Below, piece after piece: positions 34,753-53,133 of a stretch of DNA of 64,000 nt (position 1 is its first letter; every line of letters starts with the position of its first letter). The stretch is taken from contig NC_092376.1 in the NCBI RefSeq assembly GCF_030028105.1, positions 132,244,230 through 132,308,229 on the forward strand, read 5' to 3'. Below the pieces are notes generated by a model, which ran no database searches, was not told the DNA's origin, and worked only from the letters and a program-made list of their open reading frames with translations. A program made the translations under genes and the position numbers. The stretch is from Mobula birostris. Taxonomy: Eukaryota.

Positions 34753-35342
34753 GGTAGGCCCTCCATTAGTTGGGTCAACCGTGGATGTTGTGTGATATCT
34801 GGCTACTTGCAATTTATATGCAAGCCAGGCCACTATGATATGGAGAGTAAGCTATTGCCAATGCAGCAATCTCCCCCTCTCCACACAGCTGGTGAATGGC
34901 AGAAATCGATTCATTTTGGCACCAATGGCATTGTAGGAGTTGCCATTCAGTGTTAAACTCAATGTTAGGGACTCCTTCTTTGGATTTGAGCTTACTCCCA
35001 AAGCCTTGTCCACGTGAGTGGGTATAACCCTAGAGGAGAGAGGTTTCAGATCAGAGTTTTCCTTCTCCTAGATGAACTGCCAACTGTGGTGAACTAGCCA
35101 CATCTGCCCGGAATGACTGGTTTTAAGATGCCAGTAACCTGTCTTTGCACTTTTTCCTGTCAGTAGAAACAGTTCCATTGGACTTAGTAGCTGAGCCACA
35201 CGTGAAGACCAGGAACTGGACTTGGGTATCAGAGGCTATTTGAAATACAACTATTGTGAGCATTTAATTGGTAGTGAAAGCTCATTCTCACTACTCACCA
35301 CCGACCTCCCCCTCCCCAAGCCTAAGATAATCTTAAGAAACC
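34753..35342 (-). mobile_element. Short non-coding RTE-type retroposon (family 1, copy A) with HDV-like head
   Basis: Homologous to 51037-51601. TSD ATAAAAAGCA / ATGAAAAGCA (34743-34752 / 35343-35352). Confidence 0.75.
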
Positions 35343-42896: not shown

Positions 42897-43684
42897 TGTC
42901 AGTACCTCCAGTTCAACTCTGTCTTTATGTGAGTTTCCCTCTAGCTGTCAGTCTGTGGTTTTGTATTGCCATGTGCTTCTATCCCCGATCCTGCTCTACT
43001 CCAGCCCCTGTATTACTGAGTACTCCGTCTCTCATCAGTTTCTCATTATTACCTGTATTGCTGCCACCTGTGTCTCATTGCGCTCCACCTATCATCTGCC
43101 TCTCTGTTTATTGCTCAGTGTATTTCAGTCCTGTGTTTTCACCTGTTTGTTGTTAGATTGTGCCAGTGAATTTTCCTGAGTCTCTTCAGTATTTGTATCT
43201 GTACTCTGTCTGTTTGCATACTGACTGCCTGTTTCCTGATTCTGGTTTTTGGATTTCTCTGAATGTTTTGATATCTGCCTGAACTTTGATGCTGACTTTG
43301 TTTGCACCTCAGGATTTGTAACTCAATTAATATTACTGTGGGCAGGTGGCCAAATGGTTAAGGCATTCGACTAGTGACCTGAAGGTCGTGAGTTTGAGCC
43401 CCAGCCCAGGTGGCGTGTTGTGTCCTTGAGCAAGGCACTAACCCACACAGTGCTCTGCGACGACACCAGTGCCAAGCTGTATCGGCCCTTCCCCTTCCCT
43501 TGGATAACATTGGTGTTGTGGAGAGGGGAGGCTTGCAGCATAGGCAACTGCCCTGCACCCTGCAGAGTGAAGAATTTCCAGGCGCAGATTCGTGGTCTCG
43601 CGAGACTAACGGATGCCTTTTTATAATATCACCATGTGCACAGTACTGGGTCTGCGATTGGATGCCTGCTCCAGCGTCCTGACA
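42897..43684 (+). mobile_element. Solo LTR (Gypsy-type) with nested SINE
   Basis: TGTCAG...CTGACA termini and a 5-bp TSD ATTTT (42892-42896 / 43685-43689). Confidence 0.85.
43341..43623 (+). mobile_element. tRNA-headed SINE with RTE-related body
   Basis: A box TGGCCAAATGG, B box GTTTGAGCC. Degenerate TSD TAATATTACTGTG / TAATATCACCATG. Homologous to 52521-52838. Confidence 0.88.
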
Positions 43685-50439: not shown

Positions 50440-51725
50440 TCCTCCTGCGTATCTGAGTGGCGTCTACTACAGCCACTTAGGGAAGAAGGCGTAGGAGACG
50501 GCGCATGGTTCAACATATGGTGTAAGTATTTATCTTAAATTTTTTCTTTGTGAGCACAAGACTCTGTTGGACACTAGAAATATAAAATCCAGAAAGTCCT
50601 GTGCATTGGTTTATTGGTGAGACCATCGGCGGGGGAGCTGCATGGCCTCGGTTGTTGTGAGGACCAGGCCCTCACGCCACGGTGACATCTGTTACAGCCA
50701 TCCAGGTGAGGAGGCATCAGAGGTGGTGTGGGAGAGGACAGCAGTCCTGTTGGAATCTGTGCTGCATTGAGGGCTGGTCCCTGCATACAGGCTTTCCCAT
50801 TGGTGCTGCTGTCTAGTGCTCGGACCCCAGAAGACAAGCTAATTTGCTTTTGCTTGTGGCTAAACTAGCGCAAGATAAGGAACTGCTACATACTTGTTCT
50901 TGCAGAAACATGGCTTCAAGAAAATATCCCATGTACCATTAATCCTCAGGCCATGCCACTCACTGTGCTGATAATATTTTTTGTAATTACATATGCTATA
51001 TAGTAACTATATCGTATGCGATATAATCTGAAATCTGGTTCCTAAGGTTATCATAGCTGAGGTGGTAGTGGGAATAAGCTCCAAATGGCATGTGACTCTG
51101 ACAACCTCTGATAACCAAGTCCAACTTTTGGCCTTCACATGTGGCTTAGCTACTAGGCCCAGTGGAACTGTCTCTACTGACAAGAGAAGGGGAAAATGCG
51201 GACCACTGGCGCCTCAAAACCAGTTACTTTGGGCAGGTGGGGCTTGTCAGACTTGGATGGCAGTTCGTCTAGGAGAAGGAATCAACCTCTGCTGCCTTGT
51301 TGCCACACCCATCCATGGGAGAGGCTTCGGGAGTAAACCCCGAGGAAGAAATCCAGAGCCGGAGGTAGTTTGATGTTGTTTACAGCTCCACTCTGGCACC
51401 TGTGCAACGACACTGGTACCAAGTTGTCTCAGTGCTTGCCCTTTCCTTGGACTACATCAGTGACGTGGTGAGGGGGAAGCCTGCTGCATGGCCAATGGCC
51501 GGTTCTTCAAATCTTCCCACCCAGGCTTGCACCCTGGAGAGAACACAGCCCACCAGAAGTGCAAAGCCATGATCCCTGGGATCGACAATTGCCTACTACT
51601 AGTATGCCATATTATAGCTATATGTACTGTATGCTGTGAATTGCACCTTAGCCCTGGGAGTACACGGTTTCGTTCAGCTGTATACACGTGTATGGAGAGT
51701 GACAATTAAACTTGAACGTGAACTT
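50440..51725 (+). mobile_element. Internally deleted Rex1-like element hosting a nested retroposon
   Basis: CpG-containing 5' part, endonuclease remnant LVLAETWL (~50890-50920), and a tail ...GACAATTAAACTTGAAC like 12770-12860. Confidence 0.55.
51037..51601 (+). mobile_element. Short non-coding RTE-type retroposon (family 1, copy B) with HDV-like head and (CTA)n tail
   Basis: Homologous to 34753-35342. Flanked by GTATGCGATAT / GTATGCCATAT (51014-51024 / 51602-51612). Confidence 0.75.
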
Positions 51726-52064: not shown

Positions 52065-53133
52065 CAGTGGATTCTGGTTAGTTGGGCCATCGGTTAAGCA
52101 GGAAAGCTGCTTATTTGGGACAATTCCTAAAGAACAAAATCTAATTGAGAAAATAGCCAGTATTCCATTCATTTATTGGGATACCATGCTGCTTAATTGG
52201 GACAGGAGGTTGTTGCCAAACTGTTTCTAACTAACGCCAGCTTCACACACTTATGTAGACTTTATACCATGTTTAGAGTGAACAGTTTTTAAATGGTGTC
52301 AATTGAGTGTGTTTCTCATCAAAAAGGAATAATTTTTGTCACTGATAGTTGGCGAGAAATAAGCAGTGAAATGATTCAGAACTATTTTGCTTGCTGCATA
52401 TTCAAGCATTCAAGCTTGGAGATGGCAGAAATGGACAGTTGGAAACTATGAAGAACTTGAAGGTGTCGACAATCATCTCGAATATTATAATAAAAATGAA
52501 GATATGGAGGATGTAATCATGCGTGGGCAATTGGCCAAGTGGTTAAGGCATTGGACTAGCACCCTGAAGGTCGTGAGTTCGAGCCCCAGCCGAGGGAACG
52601 TGTTGTGTCCTAGAACAAGGCACTTAATCACACATTGCACTGTGACGACACCAGTGCCAAGCTGTATGGGTCCTAATGCCCTTCCCTTGGACAACATTGG
52701 TGTCATGGAGAGGGGAGACTTGCAGCATGGGCAACTGCTGGTCTTCCATACAACCTTGCCCAGGCCTGCGCCCTGGAGAGTGAAGACTTTCCAGGCGCAG
52801 ATCCATGGTCTCGCAAGACTAACAGATGCCTTTACTTTTAATCATCAAAGCGTGAAGCCAGTCCATTATCTCCACTAGGTGTGTGCACTGATTTTATTCA
52901 TTTACAGTCAATCAAAAGAACACAGCAGCATACACGAGATGAATTCCTCTGTCATTAACTATTACGAACTAATACAGAGTTTTTTTGTTCTGTAGTAGCA
53001 TTTGTGGTGTTCTAATTTGTTCTGTATTTCATTTATATTCATAATTCATTACTTATTTAATGCCTTTTTAACTATTTCCATGAAACGAAGGCTTAAATAG
53101 GCCAAATGTACTGGTACTGATGTGTCCCAATTA
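52065..53133. mobile_element. Tigger/pogo-like non-autonomous DNA element with nested SINE
   Basis: TA|CAGTGGATTCTGGTTAGTTGGG TIR and partial right TIR TGTCCCAATTAA. Homologous to 59347-60706. Confidence 0.75.
52521..52838 (+). mobile_element. tRNA-headed SINE with RTE-related body
   Basis: A box TGGCCAAGTGG, B box GTTCGAGCC, TSD TAATCAT (52514-52520 / 52839-52845). Confidence 0.9.

Follow-up and report, generated by a model that had tools for sequence, protein, structure and literature searches.

HDV-like self-cleaving ribozymes have been reported at the 5′ ends of RTE retrotransposons (PMC5786205; PMC6765202). The loop L3 contributes to the active site of the HDV fold and is assumed to have a constant length of 7–8 nt, and one design descriptor takes G1-Y, the L3 bases U20, C24 and G25, and the C of J4/2 as fixed points (PMC6326823). 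Around this core the described members vary: CPEB3 opens with a G1-U37 pair (bioRxiv 10.1101/2022.09.22.508989), a P1 of 6–7 bp straight after P3 is normal in R2 ribozymes (PMC3774820), the loss of P4 is normal in R2 (PMC3774820) and minimal ribozymes (PMC10879173), and a P1.2 domain speeds drz-Agam-2-1 (PMC4908430). Two-ended remnants of LINEs have been described for RTE, Ingi, Vingi and R2 (PMC5786205), and ribozyme-headed remnants are known from the R2 SIDEs (PMC3414825).

The locus compared with these systems lies in a window of 64,000 nt of the Mobula birostris genome (assembly GCF_030028105.1, contig NC_092376.1, positions 132,244,230 to 132,308,229, forward strand), and coordinates are those of this window. 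An earlier note, made from the letters alone, had placed an atypical HDV-like ribozyme at the head of a short non-coding retroposon at 51037–51186. The retroposon and, as a prediction, its HDV-like head were borne out, but the helix register was not, because three helices had been misassigned. Judged from sequence, it is rather probable that the locus is the decayed remnant of a LINE, likely of the RTE clade, the family head of which would form an HDV-like fold and likely cut the RNA just before its first base, G1.

A search of the 4.0-Gb genome identified the flagged 150 nt as the head of a non-coding retroposon of ~600 nt that is present in thousands of copies. The first look yielded 3,645 and 3,861 candidate copies for the two window copies, and exact-pattern matches alone occurred at 1,405 and 1,099 places. 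The 30 copies nearest to the window copy gave an element of 598 columns, with 90–95% identity to their own majority, which starts with GGTTCC, ends with a TAC repeat and has no tRNA-derived head. The sister copy reported in the earlier note is real, with TTCCTG/CAGGAA present and the whole element extending from 35342 to 34760 on the minus strand; it is 76% identical to the window copy over 177 nt and belongs to subfamily B, the window copy being a member of subfamily A. Candidate target-site duplications were detected by script in 32 of 55 full-length A copies, most of them ending a few bases from G1; in the window copy, 9 extra bases separate the likely duplication from G1. The features are listed below, with helices named after the predicted fold.

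51037..51601, plus: two-ended non-autonomous retroposon of subfamily A (LINE 5′ part, LINE 3′ part, TAC-repeat tail); profile match 51037–51594 to model 1–599, tail 51594–51601
51014..51027, plus: likely left target-site duplication, 12/14 identical to 51602–51615 (flanks read by eye)
51037..51042, plus: 5′ strand of P1, with P1′ as its sole partner in the head; G1 is the first base of the element and the predicted cut site
51046..51116, plus: structured J1/2, closed by an 8-bp P1.2 (51046–51053 with 51109–51116); its inner hairpin is short by 20 nt
51125..51133, plus: 5′ strands of P2 (51125–51130) and P3 (51131–51133)
51134..51140, plus: L3 core, 7 nt; the G25 equivalent has decayed to A (family majority UUCACGU)
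51141..51160, plus: hairpin insert of 20 nt that separates L3 from P3′ and sets this variant apart
51161..51170, plus: P3′ (51161–51163, GGC decayed at CpG to AGT), P1′ (51164–51169) and the G of P1.1 (51170)
51171..51186, plus: 6-nt linker replacing P4 (51171–51176), J4/2 (CUGA; its C at 51177 is putatively catalytic) and P2′ (51181–51186)
51228, plus: U213 equivalent, the second 5′ start of many short copies
51546..51547, plus: junction of the LINE 5′ and 3′ parts
34760..35342, minus: sister copy of subfamily B (profile match), more decayed, in which P3 fails

Subfamily A matches the 5′ and 3′ ends of a LINE joined together (LINE nt 1–547 plus the last ~52 nt, no ORF) and is therefore a two-ended, internally deleted LINE. 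The independent SINE-type element proposed in the earlier note thus gives way to an element of a known kind. The partner LINE was found through a chance locus (L236) at which head and body continue into an endonuclease frame, and a search with the endonuclease region of this locus returned 215 candidates. Full LINE copies of ~4.0 kb carry model nt 1–550 in front and 547–599 behind, with a sharp junction after nt 547. In broken copies the LINE frames match PF14529 and PF00078 (APE and RT), the clear PF00078 match being that of a second, related LINE family, C, which shares the head; the A piece scores below the cut-off. Among the 120 of 295 protein matches listed, relatives with both domains are 1,030–1,060 aa long, share 56–66% identity over the query and come from crab, lancelet, coral, mollusc, urchin and skink. 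A single APE and RT ORF of about 1,050 aa is a trait of the RTE clade and fits the partner LINE; within the local sequences compared, RT scores reach up to 91 bits against DUF6451-bearing LINEs versus up to 55 bits against PF14529-selected loci. The partner LINE probably belongs to the RTE clade, given that it has one APE-RT frame, that its RT scores higher against the DUF6451-bearing LINEs, and that its motifs fit. One match is named F52C9.6-like, a name linked to RTE. A LINE partner of B was not found among the LINE copies of this genome that were examined.

Several other candidates for the partner were set aside: four DUF6451-bearing LINE families sought by Pfam, the tails of which differ; 30 PF14529 loci, with only a flanking SINE piece in common; and Vingi, a lead that was abandoned after the actual LINE was identified. 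Two other DUF6451 LINE families are represented by near-full copies with different 5′ ends (L192/L199/L205 and L193/L197/L200). In six LINE copies (L304, L308, L309, L312, L315 and L326), the head is inverted relative to the body in a twin-priming-like arrangement, and a reverse-transcriptase remnant with ~25% identity to a local LINE RT lies at 74–901 on the minus strand of the window. The window also contains two SINE copies (52523–52831 and 43338–43618) with a tRNA-like head (by eye; ARAGORN detected none), behind which come ~100–140 nt from the 5′ UTR of the family C LINE and then the final 48 nt of this LINE. More than 20 near-identical, internally deleted B copies are strung along one contig (L267; G000 C12, ~35–54 Mb), probably in segmental duplications.

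The A element resembles the bipartite non-autonomous LINEs, which consist of the 5′ end and a short 3′ end of an autonomous LINE without an ORF (PMC5786205), and the R2 SIDEs, which likewise join two LINE ends without an ORF and retain the 5′ ribozyme (PMC3414825). Unlike these elements, as far as the accessible text describes them, it is not site-specific, numbers thousands of copies, has a 5′ part of 547 nt, and shows a second fixed start in many copies.

The majorities of A, B and C fit the canonical HDV order of P1, P2, P3, L3, P3′, P1′, P1.1, J4/2 and P2′, with P4 absent. P1 would be formed by the first 6 nt of the element and the strand that the earlier note took for the 5′ strand of P4, which is better read as P1′ and is the single partner found in the head; its 6 bp open with G1-Y, namely G1-U in A and C and G1-C in B. 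P3′ is the second GGC, which adjoins P1′, as the fold demands (PMC3774820). The L3 core reads UUC(A/U)CGU with U20, C24 and G25, and P1.1 consists of C22-G and a U-U. Between L3 and the second GGC, all three families carry a 20-nt insert that forms a hairpin of 7–8 bp, and the resulting L3 of 27 nt (7-nt core plus 20-nt hairpin) exceeds the 7–8 nt of HDV-like ribozymes, the single defining feature from which the fold departs. P1′ is followed by G, a 6-nt linker, CUGA and P2′, the last of which can be extended by just 3 further pairs past a 2×2 loop. The CUGA pattern is kept in 58/60 A and 40/41 B heads; it has U as its second base, where one design descriptor (C-R-R-A) has a purine (PMC6326823).

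All strings quoted in the earlier note are in place (CTTTTG at 51125–51130, GCC, TTCACATGT, GGC, TTAGCTAC and TAGGCCC, as well as CTGA at 51177–51180, CAAGAG at 51181–51186 and TAGCTGA at 51054–51060), and it is their assignment that has changed. The P1 proposed there (TAGCTGA/TTAGCTA) pairs only in the decayed window copy, since the A and B majorities have a C-A mismatch and that of C has two mismatches. The J1/2 of ~64 nt is really ~100 nt in the family majority, the window copy having suffered a 20-nt deletion of a J1/2 hairpin (window 51075) that recurs in 8/60 A heads and lies between two short direct repeats. The oddity had been seen in ~15 nt separating P3′ from P4; the actual departure is the 20-nt hairpin between L3 and P3′ together with the absence of P4. 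An alternative hairpin does exist in all three families, as had been suggested, but as the insert rather than as a competing switch.

A descriptor that allows, but does not demand, a hairpin insert finds a single match in each of the three family majorities, beginning at nt 1 every time; with the insert barred it matches none of them, in agreement with the earlier expectation that standard descriptors would miss the fold. When the A head was dinucleotide-shuffled 20,000 times, the descriptor never matched, and when the upstream 109 nt were shuffled, a P1 at nt 1 appeared in 0.027% of cases (chance ~0.0003), figures that are optimistic because the descriptor was written after the fold was seen. 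Nested ensemble folding, which covers pseudoknot-free structures, assigns probabilities of 0.94–1.0 to the inserted hairpin, 0.22–0.70 to P1 and 0.0 to both candidate P3 helices. The values for the revised P3 and for P1 arise because L3 bases can extend the inserted hairpin; the P3′ of the earlier note is one arm of this hairpin (7 bp). Rfam ribozyme models, a comparison that the earlier note had proposed, gave no match to six better-kept loci even at E ≤10 and none of relevance in the window; the flagged stretch itself matched no Rfam family.

The ribozymes that begin RTE elements and further non-LTR retrotransposons (Ruminski et al. 2011, as cited in PMC5786205 and PMC6765202) have the helix order and the role predicted for the Mobula head, which likewise occupies the very 5′ terminus of a probably RTE-clade APE-RT LINE. 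The Mobula head is set apart by the 20-nt hairpin between L3 and P3′ and by the missing P4, although a form with an L3 insert may already be described there. It resembles drz-Agam-2-1 in a large structured J1/2 closed by P1.2, short linkers, an extendable P2 and a 6-bp P1; unlike the Mobula fold, with its P2 extension of only 3 pairs, that ribozyme has no L3 insert in the accessible description (PMC4908430). By analogy with drz-Agam-2, the structured J1/2 would pinch P1 and P2 together. The L3 of CPEB3 (U21 C22 A23 C24 G25 U26) is identical in A and B, as is P1.1 with C-G and U-U, but in CPEB3 the L3 of 7 nt lies directly within P3, J1/2 is short and P4 is present (bioRxiv 10.1101/2022.09.22.508989). 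The minimal and theta ribozymes (PMC10879173) and the silkmoth R2 ribozymes (PMC3774820) also lack P4 and keep the catalytic C and the constrained A; they reside in other hosts and elements, and their accessible descriptions contain no L3 hairpin. In the genomic HDV ribozyme, L3 has an eighth base at the very location of the insert (bioRxiv 10.1101/2022.09.22.508989; PMC1874588), and the inserted hairpin may be looped out at this point. Ribozyme-headed RTE elements and two-ended remnants are thus known, and what is apparently new is the L3 hairpin: no HDV variant carrying one was found in the literature searched, and a prior description is possible.

Most copies have decayed at CpG, which hides the P3′/P1′ arrangement. 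A contig-ordered list of 100 matches comprises 75 from B and 25 from A. In those from B, the first CpG of the P3′ region reads CG in 11, TG in 20 and CA in 33, and the second reads CG in 18, TG in 25 and CA in 27 (hand counts); the occurrence of decay products of both directions at each CpG implies that GGC at P3′ is ancestral. The G1-U of the A master is reflected in TG in 20 of the 25 listed A matches, the B master having G1-C. All core features are present by alignment in 5/101 heads, the whole fold is found by the descriptor at 5/319 loci, L004 (1501–1680), L007, L019 and L025 among them and none in the window, and the exact letters of P3-L3-P3′-P1′ occur at 200 places genome-wide, some of which are near-identical repeats on one contig. 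In the window copy, P3 and L3 fail, with P3′ and G25 lost through CpG decay, and the stretch alone shows no folding advantage over shuffled sequences (z −1.06); it is probably a dead copy.

Across the three masters, 33 of the 39 pairs in six helices are invariant, 4 are changed on one side and still paired, 1 is compensatory and 1 is broken, the latter a J1/2 hairpin pair in the B majority. The compensatory pair lies in P2 and reads U-A in A but C-G in the other two families. The earlier note had drawn attention to three changes in P2, of which this one is fixed between families and the other two are private mutations. P1 shows one consistent change and P3 none, and P1, P3 and J4/2 have no compensatory change in these three close masters. 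In eight of eight copies, family C differs from A and B in L3 solely at position 23 and in the insert solely within the loop. Invariance proves little, because the masters are close kin, and the changes are consistent with the fold but do not amount to significant covariation. Of the public sequencing runs listed, 20/24 contain part of the stretch, and in the four compared neither the A and B variants nor the 5′ start differ, with no new covariation.

Two helices outside the head were also noted. At 51525–51570, the LINE 5′ and 3′ parts pair across the deletion junction in A, and the letters are changed but still pair in B and C; as a special long-range pairing this helix (−28.6 kcal/mol) was rejected, as at least 6 of 652 other LINE windows are equal or better (median −16.3). 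At 51235–51290, a helix of 9–10 bp with several compensatory changes among A, B and C surrounds a 3-bp hairpin (by eye), in an order that resembles HDV without the catalytic residues, and it is partly deleted in the window copy.

Mapping of 5′ ends, which the earlier note had also suggested, places the start of the element at G1, precisely at the predicted cut of the revised fold. Among 85 copies selected by body or tail, independently of the head, 41 start at nt 1–14, 25 at 190–222, 5 at 245–260 and 14 elsewhere. Within the first group, 27 could be anchored, of which 15 reach G1 and 21 reach nt 1–3. Within the second, the 21 copies that could be anchored comprise 13 with a start at U213, 6 that begin one base downstream and 2 one base upstream. 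The A-LINE copies chosen by their ORF start at nt ≤17 in 18/28 cases and at 190–222 in 0/28. This absence argues against an intrinsic cut or stall at U213 and for a cause specific to the short RNA, for instance a short master copy of its own; short A copies starting at U213 carry no fixed diagnostic change. On the other hand, the 3 B copies among the 21 anchored starts point to a preferred site. Of 40 C-LINE copies chosen by RT, 7 have a UTR match, and in 2 the start falls within a few bases of the U213 site, to one side or the other. A stem or H-type pseudoknot ends directly before U213 (partly by eye), and no HDV fold was found there. The T at position −1 in 36/68 clean starts was set aside as evidence, as this base derives from the new target. 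In the window, a possible H-type pseudoknot just upstream of this site (51190–51225) comprises two 4–6-bp stems, a variable first loop and an A-rich last loop, and is present in A, B and C (by eye).

Other ribozyme classes were considered as well. The head has twister-like features, with U-A-A after the first 6–7 nt and an AAGC loop; a twister reading was rejected by eye since its cut would fall within the element and its P2 has to be short. For the head and the U213 site, readings as hammerhead, pistol or hatchet were discarded because their core motifs were not seen by eye.

Outside this genome, homologous heads had 0 matches in viral contigs and 5 candidates in metagenome contigs, none matched by the element profile. 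The LINE protein search found none in viral contigs or phages, and in prokaryote assemblies it found 4 short contigs (L320–L323) from three assemblies, two of which include the ORF start with ~260–270 nt upstream, too short for a head; these LINE pieces are likely host contamination.

The most likely model is that LINE and remnant would be read from host promoters as parts of read-through transcripts and that the HDV-like head would cleave itself just before G1 and free the element RNA. Reverse transcription by the LINE protein would then start at the 3′ end common to both, so that the remnant would need no promoter of its own. The sharp 5′ end at G1 could also arise from a transcription start, and one alternative builds on this: the inserted hairpin may have silenced an ancestral ribozyme, with an internal Pol II promoter in the LINE 5′ UTR setting the 5′ end and the structure serving protein binding or translation. 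The 5′ end of L1Tc is reported to be both promoter and ribozyme (PMC3383444), nested folding disfavours P3, and U213 demonstrates that a second sharp start is possible without an HDV fold. However, the catalytic positions are all kept in the three masters while linkers and loops vary, and the first base of the element is the very base at which the cut is predicted, so this explanation seems unlikely.

The hairpin might instead be a switch between a silent state, in which it is formed, and an active state that uses the first GGC in P3, the register of the earlier note. In every master, GCC is also able to pair with the first GGC, and L3 loops of the CPEB3 type have alternative conformers (bioRxiv 10.1101/2022.09.22.508989); a P3 with the first GGC nevertheless leaves no P1 of 6–7 bp, the P1 of that register is mismatched once in A and B and twice in C and would cut 18–19 nt inside the element, and its nested core energy is 4.4–4.7 kcal/mol worse, all of which makes a switch very improbable. 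We attach still slightly less weight to a chance arrangement of helices, devoid of ribozyme ancestry, in a GC-rich, structured LINE 5′ UTR. Scarce core covariation, the lack of an Rfam match and a descriptor picked after the fact are compatible with chance, but the failure of all 20,000 shuffles to fit, a fit that begins at nt 1, an L3 and P1.1 equal to those of CPEB3, and the reports of such ribozymes at RTE 5′ ends (PMC5786205; PMC6765202) speak against it. The preferred reading therefore remains a LINE remnant whose family head would be an HDV-like ribozyme.

It is tempting to go further and speculate that the head is catalytically active and represents an HDV architecture not reported before, with an L3 hairpin in place of P4, that it is carried by a widespread animal RTE lineage and missed by standard searches, and that a second RNA processing signal makes the U213 end of about three in ten short copies; this extended proposal is doubtful and is offered tentatively. 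If the ribozyme is active, a natural form with a 20-nt L3 hairpin would widen the rules of the HDV fold and add a site for engineering, and descriptor-based surveys would have undercounted ribozymes in animal retrotransposons. If true, it would also support the proposal that 5′ ribozymes explain the promoter-less two-ended remnants of RTE, Ingi and R2 elements (PMC5786205).
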